A stretch of 64,000 bases of DNA from Gammaproteobacteria bacterium (GCA_965200295.1 OZ241347.1:2615272-2679271), one strand, 5' to 3'. Numbered from the stretch's first letter, positions 35,936 to 61,452 are shown. Notes: a model not told the origin generated them from the letters alone. A program made the numbers and translations.

Positions 35936-36025
35936 TTAGGATAGCAGCTTGCGGGCGATGACCAAGCTGTGAACACCTCAACACAGCCCCCTGGGGCATT
36001 TTGCAACCTACATGGTAATAAAATC

Positions 36026-38366: not shown

Positions 38367-38384
38367 ATGCTACAGCAGTTACAG

Positions 38385-38526
38385 GGCGCCTCTAAAAATT
38401 AGAGGCGCCCGTGCAGCATAAGGATATGCTGCCATTTTTAAGCACGTTAGTGCTTGAAAATGAAGGAAACGAAAAATCATACTTTTTCGTTTCCGTCCCT
38501 AAAAATGCCATGAATGGCATTTTTAG
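38385..38526. repeat. long composite palindromic element (five consecutive hairpins, ~142 bp), + orientation
   Basis: near-identical to 51573-51720 and to the reverse complement of 12204-12322. Confidence 0.85.
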
Positions 38527-44867: not shown

Positions 44868-45257
44868 TCATCCCACATTCAGGAATGCGAGCAGTTCCTG
44901 CGGGTCCAGACATTTTACGACTGAGTATTTAAACCCCTTCGTATCCCGGCTGACAATGGCCTGTGCGCCGACAAGGTACGCAGCTTGTTCTATGACAGCA
45001 TCTTCAAAGTCCTGTATCCGGCTTTTGATCGCCTCCTCAATGACAGGTCGATTAACCGGCGCGATTTCAAACAACTCCAGTAATCGCTGCAAAGCAGCGT
45101 GGGCGTCGGATTTTTCCAATACCTTTGATAACAGGTAGTCAATCGTTGTAACAGTGGTGGCACACAGGTAGGATTCAAGCTCTGACCGCTCAGTCAGGGC
45201 AAAGATTGTTGCAGCGGACTGCACAAACAGTTCCCGTGCGAGCAGGAGGTCGAGCAC
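44868..45257 (-). CDS. PIN-domain ribonuclease toxin (VapC-like)
   Basis: acidic PIN residues present (DTN at the N-terminus, internal E, D, SRD); the true N-terminus probably extends to ~45284 (in-frame LKILVDTNVV upstream of the called GTG), overlapping the antitoxin stop. Confidence 0.7.
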   Translation of the reverse strand: MLDLLLARELFVQSAATIFALTERSELESYLCATTVTTIDYLLSKVLEKSDAHAALQRLLELFEIAPVNRPVIEEAIKSRIQDFEDAVIEQAAYLVGAQAIVSRDTKGFKYSVVKCLDPQELLAFLNVG

Positions 45258-46964: not shown

Positions 46965-47055
46965 GGAGAGGTGGCAGAGCGGTTGAATGCACCGGTCTTG
47001 AAAACCGGCAAGGGTTGATAGCCCTTCGTGGGTTCGAATCCCACCCTCTCCGCCA
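46965..47055 (+). tRNA. tRNA-Ser (anticodon UGA), class II with long variable arm
   Basis: cloverleaf: acceptor GGAGAGG/CCUCUCC; anticodon loop CUUGAAA; T-loop GGTTCGAATCC; encoded CCA. Confidence 0.9.
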
Positions 47056-47174: not shown

Positions 47175-48098
47175 TCAATCACACCCATAGCCATTGTACT
47201 GGACCTCGAAGATCGCGCGTGGGTTGTTCACGACCCGGTAGTGCTGCGTGTTGTCGCGTAAGTTCACGGCGGTTGGCAGAGTCCAACCATATCCATAATT
47301 AGGGGTCGTATCACAGATCGGATCGCTGATTCTGTTCGGCACCGAATTGCACCATGGGCGGCCTGAGTTGACAGGTCCACTTACCGTACAACCATCCTGC
47401 CACGTATACGTCTCCGCGCCCGGCGCCTGGACACGCACCCGGCAATTTACTTCTTTGTTCGTTATAAAAGTGCACCACGCACCAGTGGCGTTACTGGGTG
47501 GGGTGGGGCAGCAATCATGCCCATTGCACTCGGTCTCCACTTTTCTGCCGGCCCCCGTAAACACCCCCCGCTGCGACGAGATCGCCGTCCCGCCCGGAGC
47601 GCCCCGGCAGTCGCTGCAGGAGGTCAGGAGGCTGACCCGGATCACCCGTCGTTCGGATACCGGCATGGGCGCGTAAGAAGATGCCTTCTGCCTGAAACGG
47701 ATGATGTTGTCCCCTTTTCGGAATGTCACTTTTGCCTGCCCATTGGCCAAATTCGCCCCATCAACAAACACGCCGCCGCCGACATTGTACTCTATAACGT
47801 CGTGGGGGCTGAACTGGAGCCGCGCCTGTGCCCAACCGTCCGTGTAGTCCGATCCCGGTTCAAAGAACCCGCCCCACGCCTCGACATTCACCGCCGATTC
47901 CGTGCTGGGCATTCCCGGATCGCAGGCGTCCAGAACCTGCGGCCCCTTGTATTCGAGCCAGATTTTCGCCTGGCCCTGTGTGTTCTGAGAGGTGGCCCAC
48001 ACCGGCGCGGCCATCACCGTCGCCACCAGCGCGGCGGTTACTGCGGCTAATTTAGCAAGGGGGGGGGGGGGGGGGGGGGGGGTAAGTAAGTGTTTCAT
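47175..48098 (-). CDS. secreted cysteine-rich protein of unknown function with a poly-Pro stretch in the signal-peptide region
   Basis: 307 aa; MKHLLT-P7-LAKLAAVTAALVATVMAAPVWA signal; ~20 Cys; no recognisable family. Confidence 0.55.
   Translation of the reverse strand: MKHLLTPPPPPPPLAKLAAVTAALVATVMAAPVWATSQNTQGQAKIWLEYKGPQVLDACDPGMPSTESAVNVEAWGGFFEPGSDYTDGWAQARLQFSPHDVIEYNVGGGVFVDGANLANGQAKVTFRKGDNIIRFRQKASSYAPMPVSERRVIRVSLLTSCSDCRGAPGGTAISSQRGVFTGAGRKVETECNGHDCCPTPPSNATGAWCTFITNKEVNCRVRVQAPGAETYTWQDGCTVSGPVNSGRPWCNSVPNRISDPICDTTPNYGYGWTLPTAVNLRDNTQHYRVVNNPRAIFEVQYNGYGCD
48059..48082. repeat. 24-nt G homopolymer (poly-C on the coding strand) within codons 6-14 of the Cys-rich protein gene
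   Basis: seen directly; encodes T-P7; slipped-strand contingency-locus candidate. Confidence 0.9.
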
Positions 48099-48306
48099 TG
48101 TTTTGCTCCTGTGTCAGGTTGATGCGGCCCGTTTATGCCATTTAAGGGCAGTTTGGGTCGCCGGGTCAGCAAAATAATCTTCGATGGCGCCCTCGGCACA
48201 GCCGTAAACTACCCTGTGCCCACGACAACGCCTTTCATGCTACACCTGACTCATCTTCAAAGCAAGCGTGAAACAAAACCTGATATTGCACATCAAAATT
48301 CTTTGA

Positions 48307-48576
48307 GTGCCGCTGGCGCGGGACGTGGAAGACTGCGCCTTATTGTTGTCGGTACTGGCCGGCCCGGATGCGCGCGACCCATGTTCACTGCCGGAAAGTG
48401 GCGGGCAGTTTAGCGCTGGCTTGCCGGCCGTTTCCGTGCCGGCCGGGTTCACTGCCAGCGGCCTGCCCGTCGATTCGCAGATCGTCGGCCCGCCCCGGGC
48501 CGATGCGGCGGTGCTGGGCGCGGCCCGTGTGTTTGAACAGGCCACCGGGTTCGGCAAATGGCGCCCGCAGTTGTGA
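48307..48576 (+). pseudogene. amidase (amidase-signature family) remnant: a mid-domain piece fused to the C-terminal end
   Basis: DVEDCALLLSVLAGPDARD and LPVDSQIVGPPRADAAVLGAARVFEQ match amidase internal and C-terminal regions; the N-terminal ~350 aa are absent. Confidence 0.5.
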
Positions 48577-48578
48577 AC

Positions 48579-49628
48579 TCAGCACCCGCCCAGGCCGAAC
48601 AACTGCACCAGGTCGCGGCGGTATTGAATGGAAAATTTATCCGCGGGGATGGAGACTTCGGCGGCGGGGTTGAGCGGCACCGGGTAGGGTCGCTGGCTTT
48701 CCACGACCACGATATCCTCGGCGTTGGTCACTAACTGGTATTGGGCGTAATCCTCCGTGGTGGCGCCGGGGATGTTGGTCAGCGAAATCTGGTAGATGGC
48801 GGTCTCGACCGCGCTCACAGGCGCGGCAATGTCATAGAAATGGCTGGTCATTTCCTCTGTGTAGTCAACCTTGAGGTCGGTGGCGAACGGGTAGGTCAGG
48901 TCGTGGCTGTAATAGACCTCGCGCTCACCGATGTTGTCGTCGTTAAACCCCCGTTCCACCTCGATATAGGGCAGTTCCATGTGCAGGCCATAATCGGTGC
49001 GCCGCAGCAGGTAATCGTCCAGTTGCGGGCGCTGCCGGTTGCCGAAGGTTTTCATGTGTACCCAGGACAGGTGCGCGATGTCGTTGAAGTTTTCGCAATG
49101 GCGGCTGGCGGAGGTCTGCCACAAGCCCTTTGGAATCTCAATTCTGAGCCAACTTGCATCGTGGTTTTCCAGCAGCGGCCATTCGGGCAACGGCCGCAGT
49201 GGTTTATCCTTAAGGCAGACCCAGAGCAGGCCGTAGCGTTGCACGGTCTGGTACCGGGTCAGACGCATCTGTGTCGGGATGAGCTGGTTCGGGTTGGTGT
49301 AAGACGGTATTCTGGTGCACGCGCCCAGATGGTCGTAGTGGTGACCATGGAACGGGCAGACCACATTGGCGCGGTCATCATCGAGCCAGCCCAGACTGAG
49401 CTTGGCGCCGCGATGGGGGCACTGGTCTTTGGCAACTGTTATGTCCTGTCGGGTTTTATAGATGACCAGGTCGGTATCCAGCAATCTGGCAGCCAGAGGC
49501 TCAGCGCCAATCTCCGAGACAAAGGCCAACGGATGCCAGAACCCGGCGAGGATGTGCCAATCGTGTTCCGCAATGGCGCTGTCAGCCGGGTAATCGGTGG
49601 TATTGGCTTGAGTTGTCGGCAGGTACAT
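48579..49628 (-). CDS. Rieske [2Fe-2S] non-heme-iron oxygenase, alpha-subunit type (pair A, long form)
   Basis: Rieske CPHRG...CPFHGH; mononuclear Fe motif NFNDIAHLSWVH; 349 aa. Confidence 0.85.
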   Translation of the reverse strand: MYLPTTQANTTDYPADSAIAEHDWHILAGFWHPLAFVSEIGAEPLAARLLDTDLVIYKTRQDITVAKDQCPHRGAKLSLGWLDDDRANVVCPFHGHHYDHLGACTRIPSYTNPNQLIPTQMRLTRYQTVQRYGLLWVCLKDKPLRPLPEWPLLENHDASWLRIEIPKGLWQTSASRHCENFNDIAHLSWVHMKTFGNRQRPQLDDYLLRRTDYGLHMELPYIEVERGFNDDNIGEREVYYSHDLTYPFATDLKVDYTEEMTSHFYDIAAPVSAVETAIYQISLTNIPGATTEDYAQYQLVTNAEDIVVVESQRPYPVPLNPAAEVSIPADKFSIQYRRDLVQLFGLGGC

Positions 49629-49629
49629 G

Positions 49630-50598
49630 TCAATCTACTCCAAAATCCATGCCCAAGGCTTTGAGGTGGCGGCGATATTTTGAGGTGAACAGGTCAGAAC
49701 GCAGGTGTAGTTCCTCGCTTAAGTCCATGGGCAATAATTCCGGTCGCTGGGATTCCAGGATGGGGATGTCCTGACCGATGATCAGGTCGTGAAAGTCTTT
49801 GATGTCCTGCTCAGTCAAATCCGCCGCATAATTGTACGCGGCGATGAAGTGCGCCCAGGATTTAGTTTCACTTTCCGGCCTGACAGCGAACATCAGCACA
49901 AATTTCTCCTTATTGGCGCGCCCGCCGATGTGCTTGACGAAATAGACCGTCAACGGCGCCAGGATACCGAAGTCATACCAGGCATCGCCGCCTTTCCCGG
50001 TGCCGTCCGGATCGGGCTGGAAATAGCGTACATCCTTGACAAAAAAGCCGTCCTCATGTGCTTCCACCTGGTAATCATCAATGACCGCGTGGTCGCGCGC
50101 ACCCAATATGCCGTCGTGCAGAATGGGCGGGTGCGACAGATCCAGGAAGTTCTCCACCACCCGCGGCGCGGCGGCATTGATCTCGTAGGGACCGCAGGGG
50201 ATGACCCGGTAATCCGGGTCGTTGAACTGGGGCAAATCGGGCAATGGCCGGGTTGCATCACCCAGGTTGACCCAGATGAGGCCGGCATGTTCCTGCGCCT
50301 GATAGACTGCGGTCGCCCGGGCCTTGGCCGGTATTCTGAGATCAGGATGGGCGGGGATAAATTCACACTGGCCGTCCCGGTTGTATTCCCAGCCGTGATA
50401 AGCGCAACGCAAGCGGTTGTTGCAGACGCTGCCCAGGCTCAGCCTGACGCCGCGATGCACGCACAGGTCTTTCCAGGCGCAGACCTTGTCTCCCGCCCGC
50501 CACAGCACCAGGTCTTCGCCCAGCACGGTGGCTGGTTTGGGTTTGTCAGCGGCCAGGTCGCGGGCCAGACCTACCGGGTGCCAGTAGTGTTTAATCAT
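49630..50598 (-). CDS. Rieske [2Fe-2S] non-heme-iron oxygenase (pair A, short form)
   Basis: CVHRG...CAYHGW; ENFLDLSHPPILH; 322 aa; stop is 2 nt from the next gene start. Confidence 0.85.
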   Translation of the reverse strand: MIKHYWHPVGLARDLAADKPKPATVLGEDLVLWRAGDKVCAWKDLCVHRGVRLSLGSVCNNRLRCAYHGWEYNRDGQCEFIPAHPDLRIPAKARATAVYQAQEHAGLIWVNLGDATRPLPDLPQFNDPDYRVIPCGPYEINAAAPRVVENFLDLSHPPILHDGILGARDHAVIDDYQVEAHEDGFFVKDVRYFQPDPDGTGKGGDAWYDFGILAPLTVYFVKHIGGRANKEKFVLMFAVRPESETKSWAHFIAAYNYAADLTEQDIKDFHDLIIGQDIPILESQRPELLPMDLSEELHLRSDLFTSKYRRHLKALGMDFGVD

Positions 50599-50656
50599 CT
50601 GAAAAAATCCGAGTATCGCAGTATCGCCGTCCGCGGTGTAAAATGGAATGGTTGCA

Positions 50657-50684
50657 GGTAACGAGCATATACCTGAAATTCACT
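50657..50684. promoter_or_regulatory. conserved 28-bp upstream box, copy C (aggtaacgagcatatacctgaaattcac)
   Basis: shares aggtaac...aaattcac with the boxes at 55471 and 57738; ~70 nt upstream of Rieske pair A and 36 nt upstream of the divergent araC-family gene. Confidence 0.5.
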
Positions 50685-50719
50685 TCTTCAGAGTGTGTAC
50701 TGAAAGAAGCCCTGACTGC

Positions 50720-51550
50720 ATGAACATATTCAACAAAGATCAGCCATTCAAGTTCGGCAAAGCGGTTTTCCCGAACGGCGGTCGTTATGGTCCGGTCACC
50801 CATGAACACCTGGACATTACCGTGATTCTGCAAGGGGAGGCGACGGTAGTTATTGATGAGGCAGAACACCGTTGTGTTGCCGGTTATGCGGTGTTCGCCT
50901 ATTCCGAACAACGCTATGAAATGATTTTCCCCAAGGGCACCGGCCATTATGTCCGTTGGTGCCACACCGGCGAGCTGGTCATGCCGCAACAGTATAAGAC
51001 CTGGCTTAAATCAGTACCGCACTGTATCCCAACGTCAAAATTAGTCTCGTGGCTCATAGACGAGGGCATCGCCTTGGGGCATGGTGAGGGCGTGAGCCTG
51101 GATCGATTACGCAATTCCATGGGCGAGGCTGTTTTTAACGACTATTTCTACCGGGCCAACCTCGAAGAGGAAGACAGCAGGTATCCGCGCGCGGTGGCGC
51201 GGGCCAAACGTTATATTGACAACAATTTCGCCTCCCATTGCGACCTGGACAAAATCGCAGACTTTGCCAACTTGAACCCCCGCTATCTGCTGCGCCTGTT
51301 CAAACAGCACATCGGTATCACCCCCACCCGTTATCTATGGCGTTTGCGGGCCGAAAAAGGGGTTTACCTGCTGCATCAGTCCAAGCTGAGTGTGTACCAG
51401 ATCGCCGAACAATGCGGTTTCCAATCCGCCCATCATTTCTCACGCCATATCAAAGAGCAATACGGTTTGCCCCCGACCAACCTGAGACAGGCAACAAAAA
51501 ACCGTAACCCTTTCGAGTTTAACCGGGACGTACCCGACGTGCGTTACTGA
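50720..51550 (+). CDS. AraC/XylS-family transcriptional regulator
   Basis: C-terminal double HTH (YQIAEQCGFQSAHHFSRHIKEQYGLPP); start trimmed to the ATG at 50720 because the upstream extension covers the conserved box. Confidence 0.8.
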   Translation: MNIFNKDQPFKFGKAVFPNGGRYGPVTHEHLDITVILQGEATVVIDEAEHRCVAGYAVFAYSEQRYEMIFPKGTGHYVRWCHTGELVMPQQYKTWLKSVPHCIPTSKLVSWLIDEGIALGHGEGVSLDRLRNSMGEAVFNDYFYRANLEEEDSRYPRAVARAKRYIDNNFASHCDLDKIADFANLNPRYLLRLFKQHIGITPTRYLWRLRAEKGVYLLHQSKLSVYQIAEQCGFQSAHHFSRHIKEQYGLPPTNLRQATKNRNPFEFNRDVPDVRY

Positions 51551-51572
51551 CGGTGGGTCGCGTCCACTTGTG

Positions 51573-51720
51573 GGCACCTCTAAAAATTAGAGGTGGCCGT
51601 GCAGCATAGGGATATGCTGCCATTTTTAAGCACGTAAGTGATTGAAAATGAAGGAAACGGGAAATCGCACTTTTCCGTTTCCGTTTCTATAAATGCCACG
51701 GAGGGCATTTAAGAGGTTCC
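51573..51720. repeat. long composite palindromic element (five hairpins, 148 bp), + orientation
   Basis: near-identical to 38385-38526; terminal repeats cctctaaaaat / atttaagagg. Confidence 0.85.
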
Positions 51721-51729
51721 CTTGTGTTA

Positions 51730-51942
51730 TCATGCAGCCGCCTTGATAATTTCTATCCCGGAAAATGCTGCCGCAGTTGTCTCATCATCACTATTCAGCA
51801 TATCAACGTGGATTGCTATAGCCTCACTGATAAGTTTTTTTACTTCTTCCTCCGTCGCTCCTACAGCAAAACAACCGGGCAGATCAGGGACATGTGCGCC
51901 AAAACTGTTTTCACCTTGTTCCAGGATCACGGTATATTTCAT
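51730..51942 (-). CDS. HicB-family antitoxin-like protein (no cognate HicA)
   Basis: 70 aa; MKYTVILEQGENSFGAHVPDLPGCFAVGAT matches HicB-like proteins; no room for a hicA neighbour. Confidence 0.6.
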   Translation of the reverse strand: MKYTVILEQGENSFGAHVPDLPGCFAVGATEEEVKKLISEAIAIHVDMLNSDDETTAAAFSGIEIIKAAA

Positions 51943-51974
51943 ATCCGTTCTCTCATCTCTTCAATCCGGTCTGT

Positions 51975-53108
51975 CTAAGGGTGGCATGCAGCGTACCCTA
52001 AATTCCTGACCACCACCAGCAATAACACGCAGGCCAGGGTGGCGGCGATGACGGCGGCTATGCCTAAGCCGAGGTAGTCGTACCATTCGATCATGGCGCC
52101 GGCAAATGCCGGGCCTACGGCAAAACCCAGTAAATAGGCAGAGCCGGCTGCTGCGGCCCAGCGGCCTTGTTGGTCCAGCGCTGCGGCCAGGCCGAACAGG
52201 TAGGGGACGGAGAAATAGAAGAACAATACAGACAGCACCAGCGCCACCACGAACACGACGGGATGGGTATTAGTACATAACACCAGTGCGATGATGGAAA
52301 AGGCCGCCAGGAAGGCCGCTATGGGCAGGGCCCGGCCCTTGCGCACGTTCAGCCAGGTGGCCAGGCCGGCGCCGGTAAAACCGACCACGGCGCCCGCGGT
52401 CAGCGCATAACCGACCTGACTGGTTGACAGCCCGGCGCGTTCGCCCAACGGCGCCGTGAACGTATATACGGCGGCGGACGCGGTCAGGTAGATAAATATC
52501 CCCGCCAGGGTAGCCAGCCCCAGCCATGACGGGGCTGCGGGCTGGTCGGTTTTTATGGTTGCCGCTACTGCGTGACCCGCGCTCGGCAACCAGCGGAAAC
52601 ATAGCATCAGCGCCAGGGTCAAGCCGGCGATCATGCCGTAGATCCCCCGGTGGGCATACAGGTCGGTCAGGTAGCCGCCGAGGCTGAACAGGATGGTACT
52701 CAGGACGGCCCAGGTGACCTGGATATAGCCGTACAGCTTGTCGGGGTTGGTAGAGCGTGACGCCACCGCCGCCAGGGATGCGGCATACACCAGACCGGCG
52801 CCGGCGCCGGCAATACATCGCATTGCCACCAGCAGGGCGAGTTCGTTGGTTGTTATCGAAAGCAGCTGGGCTGACACTGCGGCTGCCGCAGCGACCAGAC
52901 ACAAGCGGCGGCACGACAGCTTTGGCAGGAACGGGGCGATGACGATAGCGGTTATCGCTAACACCATAAACTCCGCAAAGGCGACGAAACCGGCCTGTTG
53001 CTCCGTCAGTTCCAGGCCGATGATGACGCCACCCACCACCAGCGGCGACATTTGCGTAACCAGCCCGCCCGCCAACTGGGCGGCGATAACGGCCAGGACA
53101 AACTTCAT
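51975..53108 (-). CDS. MFS transporter
   Basis: 377 aa; 12 predicted TM segments. Confidence 0.8.
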   Translation of the reverse strand: MKFVLAVIAAQLAGGLVTQMSPLVVGGVIIGLELTEQQAGFVAFAEFMVLAITAIVIAPFLPKLSCRRLCLVAAAAAVSAQLLSITTNELALLVAMRCIAGAGAGLVYAASLAAVASRSTNPDKLYGYIQVTWAVLSTILFSLGGYLTDLYAHRGIYGMIAGLTLALMLCFRWLPSAGHAVAATIKTDQPAAPSWLGLATLAGIFIYLTASAAVYTFTAPLGERAGLSTSQVGYALTAGAVVGFTGAGLATWLNVRKGRALPIAAFLAAFSIIALVLCTNTHPVVFVVALVLSVLFFYFSVPYLFGLAAALDQQGRWAAAAGSAYLLGFAVGPAFAGAMIEWYDYLGLGIAAVIAATLACVLLLVVVRNLGYAACHP

Positions 53109-53111
53109 TGA

Positions 53112-55377
53112 CTACCAACTATATACAATCTCCCCACCCACCATGCGCGGGGTATTGGGCACCAGGGTGTGCCAGCCGGAGTTGCGGAAGTCGAAGGTCT
53201 GTACCCGATAAGCAGTATTGGACAGGTTTTTGCCCCAGAACGCGAGTTCCAGGCTTTCGTCCGCGGAGAACCAGGACACGCGGGCGCCCACCAGCCAGTG
53301 GCTCTTGGCGCGCACATCGCTGCGGTTTTCTATGGTATGGAATACCTCATCGGTCCAGCTCCAGTTGAAGGAGGCGGCGACCTTGCCGCCTATCAAGGCC
53401 GGCGTCGGCCATTCGTAGCGCGCCAGACCGGTAAACTTCCATTCCGGTGAATACACGTTGCTGTTGCCGGTTAAGTCTTCCCCGGTGATGGGGCGTCCGA
53501 AGGCGCCGAACTCGGTATCGAGGTGGCTCAAGCCGAACAGCACTTCCAGCCGTTGTGCCGGATTGACCAGAAATTCCACCTCAGCGCCGTAATAGTCGGC
53601 CTGGGGCGCGTTGCCGATTATCAATATCGCGCCAAACGGCCCCTGGGTCTGGTCGAACACCTGCAAGTCCTCATAGTCGTAGTAAAACGCCGAGACGTTG
53701 AGCCGGGCGCGGCCGTCCCACCAGGTGGACTTGAAGCCGCCTTCCACCGCCAGCAGCGTTTCCTCGTCATAGATGTTGAATTCCTCCGGGCTGGCGAAAC
53801 CGACGTTGATGCCACCACTCTTGTAGCCGGTGCCGACGCTGGCATACACCAACCAGTCGTCATTGGGGGTGTAGTCGATGCCCACCTTCCAGCTCACGTC
53901 TTCATAAGTCCTGGCGCCGCTGGTGCCGGGGTCGAACGGTACCTGGGGGATGGGGGGCACGAAATCATTCGGGTCGGGATGCGTACTGCGATGCCTCAGG
54001 TCAACCTCATCGCGGGTGTAGCGCAACCCGGCGCTGAGTTTCAGCCGGTCATTGAGTTGAAAACCGGCGTTGGCGAACACCGCCAGCGCTTCCTGGTTTT
54101 GATCGAACCACTGGAACGTGGAACCGAAAGTGCGGAATTGATATTCATTGTACGAGTTCAGTTCATCTTCGGCGTAATAAAAACCCAGCAGCCAGTCAAA
54201 CAGGCCGTCCGTCGTGGACGCGGCGCGCAACTCCTGTGACCAACCGTCGGTATCGTGGCGATAAAAGTTGTGCGTGAGCAGGTAGGGGGAGCCATCTTCC
54301 TCGCCGGGCAGGTAGCGTTGGAACTTGTTATAGGCGCTGATCGAGGTGACGGTAAAGTACTGTAAGTCCCACTCCAGGCGCAAGGTCGTGCCGATAGTCT
54401 CGAAATCGACTTCGTCATGCAGGTCGAAATCACCGGCGGTGGGGTCGCCGCGTTCCTCCACGCCGTCCGGGTCCTGGTAGCCGAAGAAATTCACACAGTC
54501 ATCGCGTAAGGTTGCATCACACAACTCGAAGGTTTCGGCAAAGGTCACGGGGTTAAATTCGTAGCTGCCCGGCACTGCCACGCCGGCGTGCTGGTAGCTG
54601 TAGGCGTCGGAGCGATCCTGGGAGCCGTTTACTGACCATAATACCTGTACATTATCCTGCGGCGCCCATTCCAGCGTGCCGCGCCAGGAGTAAAAATCCA
54701 CCTCGTTGAAATCGCCGCCGACCGTGCCGGGCAGGTCGGTTCGACCCTTCATCCAGCCGCCGCCGTTGCTGTAGGTGCCGGCGATGCGCCCGGCCAGGGT
54801 ATCGGTGAGGGGGCCGGATACGGCGCCCTCGAATTTCACCGCGTCATAGCTGCCATAGCCGGCCTGAGCATAGCCGGAAAACTCCTGTGTGGGCTTGGCG
54901 GTGATGTAATTGATGGCGCCGCCGGTGGCGTTGCGGCCGTACAAGGTGCCCTGGGGGCCGCGCAACACCTCGATCCGTTCCAGGTCAAAGGTTTGCATGG
55001 TGTGCATGAACGTGTTGTGCAGATAGACCTCATCGACATAGACGCCCACTGTGGTTTGCGTGTTGGCGGCAAAATCGACTGCGCCCGACCCGCGTATGAA
55101 TGATTTAGCCTGCTGGTTGCCGGACGGCGGTGCGATAACCACGCCGGGTACGTACTGGCCCAGGTCGTTGCTGTTGGTTAACCCGATGTCGCGCAGCACC
55201 TCCCTGGAAAATGCCGTGACTGACACGCTCACGTCCTGCAGGCTTTCTTCCCGTTTTTGCGCGGTAACAATCACTTCTTCGAGAAGATCTGCCGCTACCG
55301 GCGCCGGCGCCAGCAATGCCGCCAGGATCGGTAAAAAAATGGCGCTGGAACGCATATTACAAAATTTGAAGTTGAGC
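53112..55377 (-). CDS. TonB-dependent outer-membrane receptor
   Basis: start trimmed to MLNFKFCNMRSSAIFLPILAALLAPAPVAA (signal peptide); plug motif EEVIVTAQKREESLQD; C-terminal GGEIVYSW. Confidence 0.85.
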
Positions 55378-55470
55378 ATGGGGCATCCTCCACTAATAGT
55401 TGCGCTACCGGAGTAACGGCTGCCGAGCCTCCCCATGATTGACGAAAACGAACAACGGGTAAATCTATCC

Positions 55471-55498
55471 AGGTAACGAACCTGTATCTTAAATTCAC
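55471..55498. promoter_or_regulatory. conserved 28-bp upstream box, copy A (aggtaacgaacctgtatcttaaattcac)
   Basis: ~94 nt upstream of the TBDR start; 26/28 identical to copy B. Confidence 0.5.
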
Positions 55499-55570
55499 CT
55501 TTCTGGTAAGAAACACCTGAAATTGACCTCCCTGACACCTAAGCAGACACGGCACATCCATAATGCTGCG

Positions 55571-55598
55571 CGGGCGCCTCTAATTTTTAGAGGTGGCC
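55571..55598. repeat. short palindromic element (gggcgcctctaatttttagaggtggccc)
   Basis: minimal form; immediately 3-prime of the Rieske B1 gene. Confidence 0.75.
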
Positions 55599-56582
55599 CT
55601 AACACGTCCCATATCTCAAGCCCAGTTCCTTTAACCAGCGCCGGTAGGCGTTGGAGGACTTGTCGGCCGGTTGATGCAGTTCGGCGGTGGGGTTTAAGGG
55701 CAGGCATTGGGGGCGTTGGGATTCCAGCACCGCCTGGTCTTGCAGGAAGATGGTGTCCTGGAAATCCCGGAAATATGCCTCTGGTTCGTCGTGACCGTAG
55801 TTCATGGCCAGCACGAACCAGGCGCGAATGCGGGTTTCTGCCAACGGTTGAATGGACAACAGGATCAGGTCGGACGGCTGCTCGCCGGCGGCGCCGGGTT
55901 CCTTGGTCAGCATTACGGTCAATGGTTGCAGTACCCGGTAGGAGTAAGCCACCTTGACGCCGCCCGCGCTGTTGACGTTGGCGCGAGGTTGCCAGGCGCT
56001 GACATTGGTGACCCGAATCTCGTTGTCCACCACTGCCACTTCATAGTCATCCATCTCCGTGTAGGGTTCTTCACCCAGGTAGCCGCTATGGACAAAGGGA
56101 AAGTGGGACAGGTCCAGAAAGTTTTCCACTGCGCGCGGGCCGCTGGTGGCGACGTCATAAGGGCCGGTGATGACCAGGTGATAATCCTCATCCACGCCGT
56201 GAAACTCAGGCGCCTCGCCGGCTGGGTCGCCAAGACAGACCCAGACCAGACCGTATTTTTCCCGTACCTGCAGGGTTGTAACCCGGGCCCGCCCGGAAAT
56301 GGGTTGCTGCGGGTGGGCCGGCATGAGGGTGCATTGCCCGGCGCTATTGAAATGCCAGCCGTGGTAGGGACAGACCAGGGTGTCACCTCCCCTGATCTCG
56401 CCCAGCGACAGCTTGCTGCCGCGATGGGGGCAACGGTCCAGCCAGGCGTGCAGCTGGCCGTTGCTGCGCCACAGCAGCAGGTCGCGCTCCAGCAGCTGCG
56501 TGGCGATCTTGCCGCCTTCGGGTACATCGTTGACATTGGCCACTACGTGCCAGTCGTTAAGCATGATGGGGTCGTCGGTCAT
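55599..56582 (-). CDS. Rieske non-heme-iron oxygenase (pair B, short form; paralog of 49630-50598)
   Basis: CPHRG...CPYHGW; ENFLDLSHFPFVH; 327 aa. Confidence 0.85.
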   Translation of the reverse strand: MTDDPIMLNDWHVVANVNDVPEGGKIATQLLERDLLLWRSNGQLHAWLDRCPHRGSKLSLGEIRGGDTLVCPYHGWHFNSAGQCTLMPAHPQQPISGRARVTTLQVREKYGLVWVCLGDPAGEAPEFHGVDEDYHLVITGPYDVATSGPRAVENFLDLSHFPFVHSGYLGEEPYTEMDDYEVAVVDNEIRVTNVSAWQPRANVNSAGGVKVAYSYRVLQPLTVMLTKEPGAAGEQPSDLILLSIQPLAETRIRAWFVLAMNYGHDEPEAYFRDFQDTIFLQDQAVLESQRPQCLPLNPTAELHQPADKSSNAYRRWLKELGLRYGTC

Positions 56583-56587
56583 CGTTA

Positions 56588-57652
56588 TTAAGTTCCTGCC
56601 ATGGGCGCGCCCAGGTTGAATTTCTCTGCCAGCGCCTTGCGGTATGCCAGCGACATGCGGTCGGCGGGGATATTGATCTCTTCCCGCAAGTCCAGGGGCA
56701 GTTCCTGCGGGTATTGTGATTCCACCAAGGGTTGGTCTTCGTCGTTAATAGCGACGGTTTCCTGCACCTGCTCTGCGGGGTTGGGGTTGCCGAAGTTATC
56801 GGCGGTAATCTGGAAGATGCCGCTCTGCCGCGCGGAAATCGGACATACCGTGTCCAGGATCACCTGGATATAATCGGATTCCTGCACCGCCACTTCCAGC
56901 AGGGTGGAAAACGGAAACGTCAGTTCGTAGCTGTACACGACTTCCCGTTGCTGCAAGTCGTCCCTGCCGTCGGGAAAGCGATTCAGCAGTTCCAGATAAG
57001 GGATGTGGAAACTCAAGCCGTAATCGGTGTGCTGCACCTGATAGCGCGGATAAGCCGCGTCCGGGCCGCCACCAAACGTGGCGCCGTGCACCCAGGGGAA
57101 ATGCGCTACGTCATTGAAGTTTTCCACGTGGCGTCCGGCGGCGACCTGCCAGGCGCCCGGCGGCACATAGTTGGGTTGATATACAGGGTCTTCCAGGTGG
57201 CGCCAATACGGTAGCGGCCAGATCGGTTCGTCCTTGAGACACACCCAGAGGATGCCGTAACGCACCTCGCTGCGGTAGGTGCGCAAGCGCAACTTGTCCG
57301 GTATGGCGGCCGTGGGGTCGGCGATGGAGGGTATCTTGCGACACACCCCGTTGCCGTCATAATGCAGGCCGTGCATGGGGCAGATGAGCAGGTCATCCTG
57401 CACGCGGCCGAGGCTTATTTTTACCCCCCGGTGCGGGCACTGGTCTTTGGCCACGGTGATGCCGGTGCCGGTGCGGTAGAGCGCCAGGTTCACGTCCAGC
57501 AACTTTGCTGCGAGCGGTCGGTCTGTTATATCATGGACAAAGGCAACCGGATGCCAGAATGCAGCCAGAATGTGCCAGTCACTTTCCCGAAAGCTGCAAC
57601 CAGGAGGCAGGTCGGTAGCTGTGAGCGTCGATTGATTGGTAGTCCGAAACAT
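56588..57652 (-). CDS. Rieske non-heme-iron oxygenase (pair B, long form; paralog of 48579-49628)
   Basis: CPHRG...CPMHGLHY; ENFNDVAHFPWVH; 354 aa. Confidence 0.85.
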   Translation of the reverse strand: MFRTTNQSTLTATDLPPGCSFRESDWHILAAFWHPVAFVHDITDRPLAAKLLDVNLALYRTGTGITVAKDQCPHRGVKISLGRVQDDLLICPMHGLHYDGNGVCRKIPSIADPTAAIPDKLRLRTYRSEVRYGILWVCLKDEPIWPLPYWRHLEDPVYQPNYVPPGAWQVAAGRHVENFNDVAHFPWVHGATFGGGPDAAYPRYQVQHTDYGLSFHIPYLELLNRFPDGRDDLQQREVVYSYELTFPFSTLLEVAVQESDYIQVILDTVCPISARQSGIFQITADNFGNPNPAEQVQETVAINDEDQPLVESQYPQELPLDLREEINIPADRMSLAYRKALAEKFNLGAPMAGT

Positions 57653-57737
57653 CAGTGATCAGGGGTGTCAAAAGGTCGCACTATGCCTTGCATTGTCAGC
57701 GATAACAAGCGCCGGATGAATAGCCCCAGGTAACAAA

Positions 57738-57765
57738 TCTGTATCTTAAATTCACATCAGGGCGC
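57738..57765. promoter_or_regulatory. conserved 28-bp upstream box, copy B (aggtaacaaatctgtatcttaaattcac)
   Basis: ~86 nt upstream of the Rieske B2 start. Confidence 0.5.
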
Positions 57766-57767
57766 CT

Positions 57768-57816
57768 CTAAAAATGCCCTCCATGGCATTTTTAGAGGCG
57801 CCCTGATGTGATATGC
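57768..57816. repeat. short palindromic element (cagggcgcctctaaaaatgccctccatggcatttttagaggcgccctg)
   Basis: canonical form with extended GC clamp; between the divergent Rieske operon and the HDAC-like gene. Confidence 0.8.
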
Positions 57817-57981
57817 TGCAAGGGCGTCTTTGATCATGAGGGTTCAGGTGTTTGTATATCTGATGTATGCGTGAATACCGTGAATCGTGCCCGTCGCACC
57901 CTGATAAAATCCCTGACGGCGACAGCGCTGCTGGCCGTGTGGTCCAGGCGCGCGCCCCCCGAACAGACGAGTGAGAACAAC

Positions 57982-58929
57982 GTGAACCTGTACGCCGACG
58001 ACAATCTGGCCGCCTACGGCTTTCCCGATGGTCATCCCTTCGGCATTGATCGCCAGGGTGAGTTCCTGCGCGAAGTTGCGGCGCGCGGCTTGCTTGATAG
58101 TGTAACCAGACCCGCGTCCCGGGCAGCATCACGCGCGGAAATAACCCGTTTTCACAGCGCCGAGTACGTGGAGCTGGTGGCCACTGCCGCGGCGCGTGGG
58201 CTAAGTACGCTGGACGGCGGCGATACGCCGGTGTTCCCCGGCATGTATGACACCGCCGCGCATGTGGTGGGCGCAGCGCTGGACGGGCTGGCTCAGGTCA
58301 TGGACGGGCGCTGCCGCCACACCATGCAGGCCATCGGCGGCCTGCACCATGCCGCACGCGACCATGCCGCCGGCTTTTGCGTGTTCAACGACCTGGGCGT
58401 GGTCATCGAAACCCTGCGCCAGGTGTATGGCGTGCAACGCGTCGCTTACCTTGACATAGACGTACACCACGGTGATGGGGTGTTCTATGCGTTTGAGGAC
58501 GACCCCGATCTGATCTTCGCCGATATTCACCAGGACAGTAACACACTGTACCCCGGCACCGGCCGGGCAGATGAGACCGGCACGGGTGAGGCGGCGGGCA
58601 CCAAGCTGAACATCGAACTACCGCCGTTTTCCGGCGATGCCGCGTTCCTGCAGGCGTGGGAACGGGTAGAGGCGCATTTCCGGGCGTTTGCGCCGGAGTT
58701 TTTCGTGTTCCAGTGCGGCGCCGACGGTCTTCAGGGCGACCCGCTGGCGCAGCTTGACTACACCCCGGCGGTGCATGCCCACGCGACGCGGCGCCTGATC
58801 GCACTGGCCGATGAGTTTGCCGACGGCCGCCTCATGGCCTTCGGCGGCGGCGGTTACCACCGCGACAATCTGGCACAAGCCTGGACGAATGTGCTTGCAG
58901 AACTTGTCACGGGAAGTGAACCCGCATAA
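57982..58929 (+). CDS. histone-deacetylase-family amidohydrolase (AcuC/acetylpolyamine-amidohydrolase-like)
   Basis: HDAC motifs (FCVFNDLG, DIDVHHGDG); start set to the in-frame GTG at 57982 (MNLYADDNLAAYGFPDGHPF); the ORF stays open upstream to 57808 (alternative GTG at 57871). Confidence 0.7.
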   Translation: MNLYADDNLAAYGFPDGHPFGIDRQGEFLREVAARGLLDSVTRPASRAASRAEITRFHSAEYVELVATAAARGLSTLDGGDTPVFPGMYDTAAHVVGAALDGLAQVMDGRCRHTMQAIGGLHHAARDHAAGFCVFNDLGVVIETLRQVYGVQRVAYLDIDVHHGDGVFYAFEDDPDLIFADIHQDSNTLYPGTGRADETGTGEAAGTKLNIELPPFSGDAAFLQAWERVEAHFRAFAPEFFVFQCGADGLQGDPLAQLDYTPAVHAHATRRLIALADEFADGRLMAFGGGGYHRDNLAQAWTNVLAELVTGSEPA

Positions 58930-58978
58930 CATGTCCGTGCAGTTGAGCCGACGCACACTTTATGATGAGGATAACAAC

Positions 58979-59821
58979 GTGAAAATAACAACATTACTCA
59001 TTGCCCTCCTGCTGTCAACCGCCGTCGGCGCGCAGGAACGGCTCAGACTGGCGACTACCACCAGCACGGAAAATTCCGGACTGCTCAAAGTGCTGCATCC
59101 GCCATTTGCCACGCGCTATAACGTCAGGGTGGACGTTATTGCCGTAGGCACCGGCAAGGCGCTGCGGCTGGGCGAGAACGGCGATGTGGATGTGTTACTG
59201 GTGCATGCGCCGGCCGCAGAGCAGGCGTTTATTGAGCAGGGCTTTGGTCGTGCACGGTTGCCGGTGATGCACAACGATTTCGTGCTGCTGGGGCCGCCCG
59301 CCGACCCCGCCGCCGTCAAATCCGCCGGGACTGTTACCACAGCTATGCAGCGGATCGCCGCCGGGGGTGCCGGTTCTGAATCAGGTTCCAGGGCAGGTTC
59401 CAGGTCAGGTTTCATATCGGGCTTCATATCAAGGGGCGATGATTCTGGTACCCACAAGAAGGAGTTGTCGCTGTGGCAGGCCGCCGGGCTGGCGCCGCGC
59501 GGCGAGTGGTACCTGTCAGTGGGGCAGGGCATGGGCGCAGTGATAAAAATCGCCGATGATAAACAAGCCTACACCCTGTCGGACCGCGGCACCTACCTGG
59601 CCTTTCGCGATAAAATCGGGTTAGAGATCGTGTATGCCGGCGCTGAGGTACTGTTCAATCCGTACCACGTTATCCTGTTGAATGAAGCAAGACACCCACA
59701 CATCAAAGCCGAGCTGGCGCAACGCTACGCCGACTTCATCCGCAGCCCCGAAGGTCAGCAACTCATCGCCGACTTCAAAATAGCCGGCGAGCAGCTATTT
59801 TATCCGGCTGTGGTGCAGTAG
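58979..59821 (+). CDS. TupA/WtpA-like periplasmic tungstate/oxyanion-binding protein (orphan, no permease/ATPase partner)
   Basis: GTG start; signal peptide; TTTSTENSGLL and SRGDDSGTH motifs; Gly/Ser-rich insertion. Confidence 0.65.
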   Translation: MKITTLLIALLLSTAVGAQERLRLATTTSTENSGLLKVLHPPFATRYNVRVDVIAVGTGKALRLGENGDVDVLLVHAPAAEQAFIEQGFGRARLPVMHNDFVLLGPPADPAAVKSAGTVTTAMQRIAAGGAGSESGSRAGSRSGFISGFISRGDDSGTHKKELSLWQAAGLAPRGEWYLSVGQGMGAVIKIADDKQAYTLSDRGTYLAFRDKIGLEIVYAGAEVLFNPYHVILLNEARHPHIKAELAQRYADFIRSPEGQQLIADFKIAGEQLFYPAVVQ

Positions 59822-59834
59822 CCCGTGCGTCGGC

Positions 59835-59847
59835 TTTAGAGGTGGCC
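59835..59847. repeat. solo terminal-repeat half (tttagaggtggcc) of the palindromic element family
   Basis: marks the left edge of the low-GC islet. Confidence 0.4.
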
Positions 59848-61206: not shown

Positions 61207-61452
61207 ATGGAAACACAGGTTATTGTTCGCATCGACTCGCGACTTAAACAGCAAGCTGTGGGCCTGGCCAAGGCCGAAGGTAAAAATGTAAGTCTGGTAA
61301 TCCGGGAACTACTTGAAAAATATGTAAAAGACCGGGATATATCACTGTATATTGATGATCTGTGGGCACGTATGGGTAACAATTTGAAAAATGCAGGGAA
61401 GACACAAAGTGATGTGGAGCAGGCTATCAGGGATGTGAGGAAGCGCTCTTGA
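61207..61452 (+). CDS. ribbon-helix-helix antitoxin-like protein
   Basis: 81 aa; N-terminal beta-strand VIVRIDSRLKQQA; 4-nt overlap (ATGA) with the downstream PIN gene. Confidence 0.6.
   Translation: METQVIVRIDSRLKQQAVGLAKAEGKNVSLVIRELLEKYVKDRDISLYIDDLWARMGNNLKNAGKTQSDVEQAIRDVRKRS

Follow-up and report, generated by a model that had tools for sequence, protein, structure and literature searches.

How do four Rieske oxygenases, encoded beside an import system and a regulator, work together, which substrate do they act upon and where do their electrons come from? These questions are raised by a locus in a 64-kb stretch of DNA from an uncultured marine gammaproteobacterium (the whole stretch analysed, hereafter the window), which encodes a TonB-dependent receptor, an MFS transporter, an AraC-family regulator and four such oxygenases. 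We propose, with moderate confidence, that the locus is an AraC-activated regulon through which a methylated purine-like heterocycle is taken up and oxidatively N-demethylated (or possibly hydroxylated), with the reductase encoded elsewhere.

Genes and transcription units of the locus

An earlier note on this DNA had described two pairs of alpha-only Rieske/VanA_C oxygenases, and all four were found at the coordinates it gave, in the swapped order that it reported (short-long in pair A, long-short in pair B), with 1 nt between the genes of pair A and 5 nt between those of pair B. The genes (homologous loci and contigs carry L numbers) are:

48579..49628, minus strand: long Rieske oxygenase A, 349 aa, second gene of pair A; Rieske and VanA_C domains; best solved match NdmA, E 9e-38
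49630..50598, minus strand: short Rieske oxygenase A, 322 aa, first gene of pair A; stop 1 nt before the long A ATG; best solved matches GxtA/SxtT, E 9e-60
50720..51550, plus strand: AraC/XylS-family regulator, 276 aa, divergent from pair A; HTH_18 and HTH_AraC, weak Cupin_2
51730..51942, minus strand: small HicB-like ORF, 70 aa, 3' of the MFS gene; PF15919 call in the identical contigs L001-L003, coordinates taken over from L001
51975..53108, minus strand: MFS transporter, 377 aa; MFS_1; ATG 3 nt after the receptor stop
53112..55379, minus strand: TonB-dependent receptor, 755 aa; plug and barrel; ATG 55379 as called in L001-L003
55599..56582, minus strand: short Rieske oxygenase B, 327 aa, second gene of pair B; Rieske and VanA_C domains; best solved match SxtT, E 1.6e-67
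56588..57652, minus strand: long Rieske oxygenase B, 354 aa, first gene of pair B; Rieske and VanA_C domains; best solved match NdmA, E 1.2e-42

Pair A and the regulator are indeed divergent, across an intergenic region of 121 nt. The earlier note had also placed pair B, the receptor and the MFS transporter in a single operon, which is not what we see: 219 nt lie between pair B and the receptor, and, since this gap holds a hairpin and a copy of the 28-bp box described below that belongs to the receptor-MFS unit itself, pair B and receptor-MFS look like separate transcription units, giving the locus three promoters (pair A, pair B and receptor-MFS).

The regulator carries a C-terminal double helix-turn-helix (HTH_18, 76 bits; HTH_AraC, 58 bits) and its N-terminal region, which aligns with that of the regulators from other loci, scores 20.5 bits for Cupin_2, under the cut-off of 27.2. 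Its identity is 83-86% in relatives, and the regulators encoded next to the long genes in Halioxenophilus, Ruegeria and Aminobacter match it at 31-34% over ~260 aa. An upstream start at 50648 was set aside, the gene calls of related contigs favouring ATG 50720 as the most likely one. The receptor, whose ATG is preceded by GGAGGA, scores 74 bits for the plug and 118 bits for the barrel, matches no NCBIfam subfamily at its cut-off and shares 47% identity along its whole length with the receptor of the Halioxenophilus cassette. For the MFS transporter, the identity is 76-83% in relatives and 30% to the Halioxenophilus cassette protein.

The four oxygenases and their electron donor

All four oxygenases score above the Pfam gathering threshold for Rieske and VanA_C (PF19112 gives 44-84 bits, with a cut-off of 23.5), and on alignment both metal sites are intact in each of them: the Rieske [2Fe-2S] ligands (CxH-x(15-20)-CxxH) are kept, and so is the mononuclear Fe motif (ENFxDxxHxxxxH), together with a downstream Asp aligned with NdmA D289. 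By motif, the four proteins are predicted to be catalytically complete. Additionally, no member of the beta (small) subunit family was found in any scanned ORF of the locus or the window.

The long forms are mutual paralogs (46-47% identity), and the short forms likewise (39%), as had been noted before, while long and short forms share 28-33%. The earlier note had likened the pairs to the N-demethylases NdmA and NdmB, and this likeness is tentatively upheld for the long forms, which have NdmA as their best solved match (E 1e-38 to 1e-43; 1e-28 to 1e-43, with 26-31% identity, when NdmB is included) and fall on the same side of the tree, but not for the pairs as close paralogues. The short forms instead group with SxtT/GxtA (E 1e-60 to 1e-67, full length, 37-39% identity, against 1e-39 for NdmA). 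In an NJ tree of 26 sequences, the bipartition between the long forms with NdmA/B and the short forms with SxtT/GxtA and Rieske-less NdmC-like proteins has 95-98% bootstrap; the long forms come out as the sister clade to NdmA/B, at only ~30% identity, with the short forms on the opposite side, and the Rieske-less, GST-associated NdmC-like proteins of Ruegeria sit inside the short B clade. Long B shares 57-61% identity with the long oxygenases of Ruegeria and L019. On this placement, each pair would unite two deeply separated clades, and SxtT/GxtA would be the closest solved relatives of the short forms rather than their orthologues. We know of no characterised enzyme within either the long or the short clade.

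Caffeine is positioned in NdmA/B by F168, F174, F223, L248, N282/Q289, V285 and F286/L293 (bioRxiv 10.1101/2021.12.17.472166). In the alignment, N282, V285 and F286 of NdmA are not kept in the long forms, the residues at 282/285/286 being Q/T/N in long A, T/I/N in long B, H/I/I in short A and Q/I/F in short B, of which only the last resembles NdmA/B; the motif-proximal pocket aromatics are retained. The selectivity positions 255/276 of SxtT/GxtA are not conserved either, since the short forms have F/I there (M/T in SxtT, Y/V in GxtA), and the Ser at the NdmA-F168 position is likewise not conserved.

The absence of a reductase or ferredoxin partner from the window, pointed out in the earlier note, was borne out, with no Fer2, FNR-type or flavin-reductase domain in any sizeable ORF, no ferredoxin-type Cys motif in any real ORF and no NdmD-type (Rieske-containing) reductase. 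It is, nevertheless, less of an oddity than it had seemed. No reductase lies within 10 kb of the homologues in L007, L011, L012 and L013, and a VanB-type reductase adjoins them in L008, L009, L021 and L022; because these related loci have the reductase gene adjacent, the lineage studied here would merely have unlinked its own. NdmD-like genes are confined to the alphaproteobacterial loci L008 and L022, and searches of the collections gave no candidate for a cognate reductase, or for a box-bearing reductase gene. The electron donor would be a protein of the VanB/phthalate-dioxygenase-reductase type, encoded elsewhere in the genome.

A 28-bp box at three probable promoters

The box, its associated hexamers (putative promoter elements) and the neighbouring repeats are located as follows:

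50620..50625, minus strand: -10-like hexamer GATACT, putative pair A promoter, starting 58 nt after the box start
50656..50683, minus strand: box A (GTGAATTTCAGGTATATGCTCGTTACCT, coding strand), in the pair A/araC divergent intergenic region; conserved in L011, L016 and L024
55435..55440, minus strand: -10-like hexamer AATCAT, putative receptor-MFS promoter, 58 nt after the box start
55471..55498, minus strand: box T (GTGAATTTAAGATACAGGTTCGTTACCT), upstream of the receptor; conserved in L011, L015 and L023
55572..55598, no strand: REP-like hairpin directly 3' of the pair B stop, folding at -18.5 kcal/mol (z = -2.6); may mark the end of a transcript, or stabilise it, between the pair B and receptor units
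57692..57697, minus strand: -10-like hexamer GACAAT, putative pair B promoter, 58 nt after the box start
57728..57755, minus strand: box B (GTGAATTTAAGATACAGATTTGTTACCT), upstream of long B
57752..57811, no strand: REP-like element abutting box B, a perfect palindrome with 27-bp arms (-53.3 kcal/mol, z = -11.5)

The pattern AGGTAAC-N13-AAATTCAC has three matches in the window even when up to 2 mismatches are allowed (0.07 expected; 0/100 shuffles yield three), so that the box does occur three times there and upstream of no other genes, as the earlier note had it. Some of its details needed correction: 55471 is right, the positions 50657 and 57738 were slightly off (50656 and 57728), and the distances from box to ATG are 57, 91 and 75 nt for boxes A, T and B, rather than 70-95 nt. 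All three boxes do precede minus-strand units, the second of them standing before the receptor and not before a Rieske pair.

The core TTTCAGATA and a distance of 58-59 nt to a -10-like hexamer are found in all eight box-bearing promoters that can be read that far, a set which includes Halioxenophilus (a ninth sequence, L016, ends too early and was left out); in the Halioxenophilus promoter the core and the spacing are kept though the intervening sequence is unrelated. The strict box pattern was scanned against 185,579 species genomes and, separately, against a metagenome collection. The first scan gave five matches (four at the orthologous locus in two relatives and one archaeal chance match) and the second gave two matches at the locus in one further relative, plus seven unrelated singletons. 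With the box kept at orthologous promoters and at chance level elsewhere in both scans, the earlier suggestion of a locus-specific regulon for uptake and Rieske-type oxidation gains support. The pair B promoter of L011 has only a degenerate box (18/30 positions), which implies that the same factor does not control pair B in every case.

We infer that the AraC-family protein binds the box as a putative operator, an assignment strengthened by its position and conservation. It is very unlikely that another factor uses the box, or that the box belongs to a mobile repeat or to a promoter that was duplicated. That reading could draw on the 56-nt stretch that the box B region shares with the receptor promoter at 77% identity, which is more than an operator would need, and on the REP-like palindromes that adjoin two of the boxes. 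But members of the REP family are scattered across the window (15 half-sites), whereas the box is restricted to the locus in all collections scanned, and the core with its -10 spacing persists in Halioxenophilus between unrelated flanks, always by an orthologous AraC gene. Moreover, AraC/XylS activators typically bind at about -71 to -44. The palindrome abutting box B, which is missing at the same place in L011, is a member of the dispersed family and no part of the operator.

Homologous loci and the probable substrate

The regulator, long and short oxygenases, TonB-dependent receptor and MFS transporter also occur together in Halioxenophilus sp. WMMB6, and a near-identical layout with two pairs is found in OZ220714.1 (L011), CBDCDS01 (L015/L016) and LXNI01001140 (L023/L024). 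The cassette is shared by related metagenome genomes and Halioxenophilus, with regulators and receptors that are full-length homologues. Other loci combine the oxygenases with different neighbours. L021 has the VanB-type reductase, long and short genes, a Bmp ABC transporter, an AraC gene and PNP_UDP_1, and L008, L009 and L022 have AraC, long, VanB-type reductase and Bmp ABC transporter genes. In L019, three such oxygenases lie by an adenosine deaminase (passing the TIGR01430 cut-off), allantoicase, a PuuE-like deacetylase, two phosphoribosyltransferases, two GCV_T proteins and GFA, and in L020 a short form and a TRZ/ATZ-type aminohydrolase are next to xdhABC and HIU hydrolase. L008 and L022 also encode a VanA_C-only protein, a GST and a reductase fused to a Rieske domain, as in the NdmCDE architecture (Rieske-less oxygenase, Rieske-fused reductase and GST-like protein; PMC4408171). 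This neighbourhood argument is built on some six hand-picked loci, rather than on a systematic census.

In the proposed mechanism, the substrate would enter through the TonB-dependent receptor in the outer membrane and the MFS transporter in the inner membrane, and would belong to a single class of small N-heterocycles, with N-methylated purines or purine-like alkaloids as the most likely candidates. The divergent AraC-family protein would sense it and switch on three weak promoters from a site of ~28 bp centred at about -57 (the core being 58 nt upstream of the -10-like hexamer). The four cytoplasmic alpha-only monooxygenases, two on the NdmA/B side and two on the SxtT side, would act at different positions, most likely hydroxylating N-methyl groups that are then lost as formaldehyde, and the demethylated base would pass to ordinary purine salvage or catabolism. 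No purine-catabolic or formaldehyde-handling gene adjoins the system in the window itself. Since a methylpurine is small and a TonB-dependent receptor is unusual for that size, the true substrate may be larger.

Three other views of the enzymes were weighed. Long and short proteins could form an obligate mixed (alpha/alpha') oxygenase, which would leave two enzymes at the locus instead of four; we consider this doubtful, even though the two genes abut or overlap in all lineages examined, in either order (gaps of 1 and 5 nt here, 0 in Halioxenophilus and 2 in L011, and a 4-nt overlap in L021), and several clusters of long and short homologues have equal longest contigs (15605, 13418, 12076, 4149), because all four proteins keep both metal sites, none of them looking like a purely structural partner, and because a long gene occurs without a short one in Aminobacter (L009) and a lone short gene in L020. 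It is rather unlikely that only the long enzymes demethylate and that the short ones are C-H hydroxylases (for example at a ring or side chain of a guanidinium or perhydropurine alkaloid), with two chemistries per pair. Their nearest characterised relatives are site-selective hydroxylases (PMC7293229), but the SxtT/GxtA residues discussed above have changed, short B is NdmA/B-like at 282/285/286, the Ruegeria NdmC-like proteins fall inside its clade and biosynthetic genes are absent nearby. It is also unlikely that the enzymes are O-demethylases or hydroxylases of the VanA type, acting not on N-heterocycles but on aromatics imported in methoxylated or alkylated form (phenolics that are lignin-like or of the sponge bromotyrosine type). 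The catalytic domain bears the name VanA_C, several source records annotate homologues as 'vanillate O-demethylase', the dicamba O-demethylase DdmC is a detectable relative and a receptor-MFS import pair is known for a lignin-derived biphenyl in Sphingobium; yet DdmC matches only the N-terminal half (E 1e-12 to 1e-19, compared with full-length matches at 1e-38 to 1e-67 for NdmA and SxtT), ring-cleavage/protocatechuate genes are absent from the window and from L008-L022, and the homologues are instead surrounded by Bmp-type transporters and by purine, nucleoside and one-carbon genes.

On the preferred reading of purine-like N-demethylation, the locus is distantly related to the bacterial caffeine-demethylase system, in a rearranged form. 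Like NdmA/NdmB (with reductase NdmD, Pseudomonas putida CBB5), it has several alpha-only Rieske and VanA_C-type monooxygenases, which in the known system are position-specific paralogues within one locus; the tree position of the long forms and the NdmCDE-type split enzyme in homologous loci add to the likeness. In contrast, the caffeine-positioning residues are not retained in the long forms, NdmA and NdmB are 52% identical to each other whereas the pairs described here join two deep clades, no NdmD-type or other reductase and no frmAB is present at the locus, and import would, by gene content, proceed via a TonB-dependent receptor and MFS transporter in a marine, uncultured host. The short-clade enzyme of Ruegeria hyattellae (L008) and L022 is split as in NdmCDE and shares its locus with a long-form gene, but the window has no split enzyme, GST or fused reductase and its short forms retain the Rieske domain. 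The cyanobacterial saxitoxin hydroxylases SxtT/GxtA (SxtDIOX) act on a purine-derived skeleton and, to our knowledge, also lack a dedicated adjacent VanB-type reductase; they are biosynthetic, however, and lie inside a toxin cluster, whereas the short genes here accompany importers and an AraC regulator, and their selectivity residues differ. With the VanAB/DdmABC-type O-demethylases, the oxygenases have in common their fold family (Pfam VanA_C) and the principle of electron supply by a class IA reductase, but the sequences are far more distant, the gene neighbourhood is another and a different substrate chemistry is expected.

A bolder variant, which we regard as improbable, combines an obligate alpha/alpha' oxygenase with demethylation, by the four proteins, of host- or plankton-derived poly-N-methylated purine alkaloids imported by the dedicated receptor. 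If true, it would represent the first TonB-dependent route for purine-type compounds and a widespread, unrecognised marine recycling pathway for methylated purines.

Concerning the surroundings, the HDAC-like protein and the periplasmic binding protein that the earlier note had placed in the vicinity were both confirmed by domain search, and the HicB-like ORF probably lies outside the system functionally. A xanthine/uracil permease is encoded at 38532-39848, 9 kb off, with unrelated genes in between.

The oxygenase pairs, their placement and their relatives

ORF calling bore out exactly the four Rieske oxygenase genes proposed in the earlier note, together with the gene order swapped between the two pairs (short-long in pair A, long-short in pair B):

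49630-50598, minus strand: short A (322 aa), first gene of pair A
48579-49628, minus strand: long A (349 aa), second gene of pair A
56588-57652, minus strand: long B (354 aa), first gene of pair B
55599-56582, minus strand: short B (327 aa), second gene of pair B

In all four proteins a Rieske domain is followed by a VanA_C domain (over the curated Pfam cut-offs), and both metal sites, on whose integrity the earlier reading hung, are whole on alignment: the Rieske ligands CxH...CxxH are intact, the mononuclear-iron motif ENFxDxxHxxxxH is present, and a downstream Asp aligns with ligand D289 of NdmA, from the caffeine/methylxanthine N-demethylase (Ndm) system of Pseudomonas putida CBB5. Identity amounts to 46-47% between the long forms, 39% between the short forms and 28-33% between long and short forms. 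Within the pairs, stop and ATG are 1 nt (pair A) or 5 nt (pair B) apart, and each second gene has a Shine-Dalgarno-like GGAG or AGGA located within the first gene.

The neighbouring genes of that note were likewise recovered by Pfam: a TonB-dependent receptor (plug and barrel), an MFS transporter whose ATG lies 3 nt past the receptor stop, an AraC-family regulator divergent from pair A and, divergent from pair B, an HDAC-like amidohydrolase and a PBP_like_2 binding protein. According to gene calls made on identical contigs of other assemblies, the receptor begins at ATG 55379 (755 aa) and the regulator at ATG 50720 (276 aa).

about 57871-58929, plus strand: HDAC-like amidohydrolase, with a twin-arginine-type signal VNTVNRARRTLIKSLTATALLAV at its start
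about 58931-59821, plus strand: PBP_like_2 binding protein, with a signal-like N-terminus and no ABC partner nearby

Because of this N-terminal signal the amidohydrolase is probably periplasmic, and a link between the HDAC-PBP pair and the Rieske system is possible.

Searched against all PDB sequences, the long forms match NdmA best (E 1.2e-42 and 9e-38), with NdmB and the cyanobacterial saxitoxin hydroxylases SxtT/GxtA next, while the best match of the short forms is SxtT/GxtA (E 1.6e-67 and 9e-60), with NdmA next at about 1e-39. The DdmC, carbazole, KshA, phthalate and carnitine oxygenases match far more weakly, mostly over the Rieske half alone, and with NCBIfam equivalog models (SdmA, GbcA and others) the scores stay an order of magnitude under the cut-offs. 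Readings as quaternary-amine demethylases (GbcA/CntA/Stc2) or as a sterol demethylase (SdmA) were rejected, the matches being weak, partial and far under the cut-offs. An NJ tree (26 sequences, 323 columns) was built from the window proteins, their homologues in loci fetched from other genomes, and NdmA, NdmB, SxtT and GxtA (segments transcribed from HMMER alignments). It separates the long clade with NdmA/B from short A, short B and SxtT/GxtA with 95-98% bootstrap. The likeness to NdmA/NdmB-type heteropairs drawn in the earlier note is thus only half right, because every pair joins an Ndm-side enzyme (the long member) to an SxtT-side one. All long forms except that of Halioxenophilus group at 80% bootstrap; the Ruegeria and Aminobacter long genes join long B, at a weakly supported node (28%). 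One fetched locus (L019) holds one long A-type and one long B-type gene, and long A and long B are old paralogues. The system would function like the Ndm caffeine-demethylase system, yet it falls strictly outside the NdmA/B family: identity is about 30%, the pocket is another, NdmD is absent and the cassette differs. The searchable literature yielded no account of these clades, nor of the pairing of long with short forms or of any Ndm-like system that is marine or linked to TonB.

Identical copies of short B occur on contigs of several Gammaproteobacteria MAG assemblies, and the double-pair layout recurs, at roughly 83-89% protein identity, in the related genomes OZ220714.1 (L011), CBDCDS01 (L015/L016) and LXNI01001140 (L023/L024). 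One long-short pair is kept in L007 and L012 (76-79% identity), with the MFS gene next in L007. In the cultured marine gammaproteobacterium Halioxenophilus sp. WMMB6, an AraC gene is divergent from a long, short, receptor and MFS series, the receptor and regulator being 47% and 33% identical to those of the window over their full length. The cassette is therefore a conserved unit and not a local accident. On CBDCDS010000003.1 (L015 2452-3975) an IS66-family transposase interrupts the receptor gene, leaving both boxes and the oxygenase genes whole. Beside the pair of L007 (977-6646) and L012 (1784-3779) lies a two-component system made up of a Rieske + Aromatic_hydrox oxygenase and a Flavin_Reduct protein, which may resemble the trigonelline TgnAB type; L007 additionally has an amidase and a PQQ dehydrogenase.

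Parts that the window lacks are found in other lineages. In L021, genes for a Bmp-family ABC transporter, an AraC regulator and a PNP_UDP_1 protein come after an overlapping long and short pair. An AraC gene divergent from a long form, with a VanB-type reductase and a Bmp ABC transporter, is shared by Ruegeria hyattellae (L008), Aminobacter anthyllidis (L009) and L022. L008 (16763-20981) and L022 (16646-20038) also encode one or two Rieske-less VanA_C proteins, a Rieske-fused reductase of about 575 aa and a GST, trios that resemble NdmCDE, here in marine Alphaproteobacteria. In a review (PMC4408171) this architecture of Rieske-less oxygenase, Rieske-fused reductase and GST is called unique to NdmCDE, and rhizobia are said to have homologous clusters whose function is unknown. 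The Ruegeria Rieske-less proteins sit inside the short B clade of the NJ tree, so the long/short partnership extends to Alphaproteobacteria, with the short partner split; since, additionally, the reductase-fused Rieske domain is closest to that of SxtT, the NdmCDE-like split enzyme seems to derive from a short-type oxygenase.

The tight translational coupling of long and short genes in every lineage speaks for a possible mixed oligomer of the two forms. Against an obligatory one stand the metal sites, whole in both partners, and the finding of each partner alone elsewhere.

The 28-bp box and the electron supply

The pattern AGGTAAC-N13-AAATTCAC (on the coding, minus strand GTGAATTT-N13-GTTACCT) has three matches in the window at up to 2 mismatches, against 0.07 expected, and none of 100 shuffles reaches three; its better-conserved half, GTGAATTTNAGNTA, occurs in the window at the same three sites and nowhere besides. 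The three copies upstream of minus-strand units claimed by the earlier note thus stand, while their placing is amended: the middle copy precedes the receptor-MFS unit, and the gaps to the start codons are as follows.

50683-50656, minus strand: box A, 57 nt to the short A start codon
55498-55471, minus strand: box T, 91 nt to the receptor start codon
57755-57728, minus strand: box B, 75 nt to the long B start codon
50625-50620, minus strand: predicted -10 hexamer of pair A
55440-55435, minus strand: predicted -10 hexamer of the receptor-MFS unit
57697-57692, minus strand: predicted -10 hexamer of pair B

By these distances the middle box belongs to the receptor-MFS unit; it lies within a 219-nt gap that opens with a hairpin repeat immediately past the pair B stop codon. 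We read the locus as three transcription units, with read-through from pair B possible.

For eight box promoters the readable sequence extends past the predicted -10: the three of the window, pair A and receptor of L011, the receptor of L015, the pair of L007/L012 and that of Halioxenophilus. Aligned on the core TTTCAGATA/TTTAAGATA, all eight have a -10-like hexamer that begins 59-60 nt from the box start (GATACT, AATCAT and GACAAT in the window, and in addition GATATT, GATAAT, GATCAT, TATAAT and TATAGT). In Halioxenophilus the sequence between core and hexamer is unrelated to the others, and there is a second direct core copy upstream and an inverted one ahead of the receptor gene; pair A of L016 has the box, its extract ending before the hexamer position. 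This spacing puts the box at about -71 to -44, the usual site of AraC/XylS-type activators where the -35 element is poor. A consensus sigma-70 scan gave no match at the three window promoters, which is consistent with activator-dependent promoters without being proof of them. The box is a predicted operator of the AraC regulator.

A strict pattern run over 185,579 species, each represented by one genome, gave five matches, four being the receptor and pair A promoters of two relatives and one an archaeal chance match. With a slightly looser pattern, a metagenome collection yielded the same two promoters in one further relative and seven singletons, with neither locus homologues nor flanking similarity and about as numerous as expected by chance (a rough estimate). 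OZ220714.1, the chromosome of the close relative, is complete at 3.8 Mb and has the strict box at this locus only. The regulon reading had been staked on the box not recurring at many unrelated promoters, and strict scans, whose pattern would miss degenerate sites, found it at the locus and in chance-level matches only. The pair B promoter of L011 has such a degenerate box (18/30 positions kept). The core is absent from the alphaproteobacterial loci, whose regulators are only about 31-34% identical, so that a different operator is expected there.

The absence of a reductase or ferredoxin from the window, also noted earlier, was confirmed by two scans: with Pfam, essentially all ORFs of at least 100 aa in the 64 kb were free of Fer2, FNR-like, NAD_binding_1 and Flavin_Reduct domains, and in a motif search of all frames for plant-type or 4Fe-4S ferredoxin Cys patterns the one match was an antisense artefact. 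L021 encodes a VanB-type reductase (DmmA-like_N/NAD_binding_1/Fer2), divergent from its oxygenase pair; when this protein was used as query in a 5.8-billion-protein set, the source genome and its relatives were absent among the best 120 matches. Box copies ahead of a reductase were sought in the strict-pattern scans of the genome and metagenome collections, which returned the locus itself in relatives and chance singletons. Going by the four homologous loci that have one, a reductase of VanB type encoded elsewhere would carry NADH electrons to the Rieske clusters.

Substrate hints and proposed mechanism

In columns aligned with the caffeine pocket of NdmA (residue list from bioRxiv 10.1101/2021.12.17.472166), the motif-proximal aromatics are retained in all four oxygenases, and specificity positions 282/285/286 read Q/T/N in long A, T/I/N in long B, H/I/I in short A and Q/I/F in short B. 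Since the four pockets differ mutually and none matches NdmA or NdmB, four regio- or substrate-specificities are expected, with a natural substrate other than caffeine.

The substrates of NdmA/B are methylxanthines, that of SxtT/GxtA is a perhydropurine alkaloid, and Bmp-family binding proteins are typically nucleoside/purine receptors (in these loci, by Pfam family assignment only). Two long oxygenases and a short one adjoin an adenosine deaminase passing the TIGR01430 cut-off in L019, where an allantoicase, a PuuE-type deacetylase, two phosphoribosyltransferases, two GCV_T-family proteins and a GFA protein are also encoded in the vicinity. The neighbours of a short form and a TRZ/ATZ-type aminohydrolase in L020 are xdhABC and 5-hydroxyisourate hydrolase, and GCV_T and GFA genes lie in the vicinity of the Aminobacter locus. 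Because of these substrates, receptors and neighbours (in a handful of loci chosen by the analyst, among about 300 long and about 5,700 short homologues), the evidence points to a purine-like substrate from which a one-carbon unit is released, i.e. to N-demethylation. Import by a TonB-dependent receptor may indicate a compound that is scarce or bulkier.

From domain families and context, the receptor and MFS transporter would take in the compound, and the AraC protein would bind both compound and box, activating the three promoters and possibly also controlling its own divergent gene. Judged by phylogeny, context and their differing pockets, the four oxygenases would then hydroxylate different N-methyl groups, lost as formaldehyde, and may act as demethylases rather than hydroxylases. 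The product would flow into purine metabolism.

If this holds, relatives of the soil "caffeine demethylase" serve marine and symbiotic bacteria in drawing nitrogen and carbon from methylated purine-like compounds, and such enzymes span Gamma- and Alphaproteobacteria with interchangeable import systems (TonB receptor and MFS versus Bmp-type ABC transporter). Both Rieske clades are uncharacterised and, with four different pockets predicted, are candidate biocatalysts for regio-selective N-demethylation, and the 28-bp box with the AraC protein is a compact putative operator-regulator pair, a candidate inducible switch and a route to the natural inducer. The locus offers a solid and testable lead on the turnover of methylpurines in the sea and on new regio-selective demethylases, with no surprise in principle.

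Repeats and surroundings of the locus

A REP-like palindrome, GGSCRCCTCTAA-AAAT-TTAGAGGYGSCC, is dispersed over intergenic gaps of the window (15 half-sites against 0.02 expected). One copy, at 57752-57811, forms an enlarged perfect hairpin (27-bp arms, -53 kcal/mol) that overlaps box B by 4 nt; the corresponding gap of L011 lacks it. It is this dispersed repeat, distinct from the box, that adjoins boxes B and T. Rfam gave no riboswitch or other RNA element in the leaders, only sub-threshold hairpin and tRNA-like matches, and an apparent tmRNA 3' end is in truth a tRNA-Ser. This adjacent tRNA suggested a genomic island, an idea rejected with no integrase and no GC deviation. In L011 the HDAC-PBP pair holds the same position, and the genes after it encode Amidohydro_3, an SSF transporter and a molybdopterin oxidoreductase. 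Where the window has an amidase remnant, L011 has a whole amidase and an additional TonB-dependent receptor, which suggests local gene loss beside pair A. A second receptor and a permease lie 9-17 kb upstream of the locus.

12296-12322, 26016, 33545, 38384-38410, 42799, 51572-51598, 55572-55598, 57752-57811, 59836, 61902: REP-like repeat
46965-47055, plus strand: tRNA-Ser(TGA), 1.5 kb from pair A
47175-48098, minus strand: 307-aa ORF, no family match, between tRNA-Ser and pair A
48135-48413, plus strand: short amidase gene remnant, between tRNA-Ser and pair A
35969-38317, plus strand: second TonB-dependent receptor, 31% identical to the cassette receptor, no box
38532-39848, minus strand: xanthine/uracil-family permease, no box
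10599-11867, minus strand: IS110-family transposase
13773-19568, plus strand: 1931-aa protein with Calx-beta domain
44868-45257, minus strand, and 61449-61865, plus strand: PIN-domain toxin-like genes
59847-60992, minus strand: AAA_14/DUF4143 ATPase, which also flanks the pair in L007 and L012
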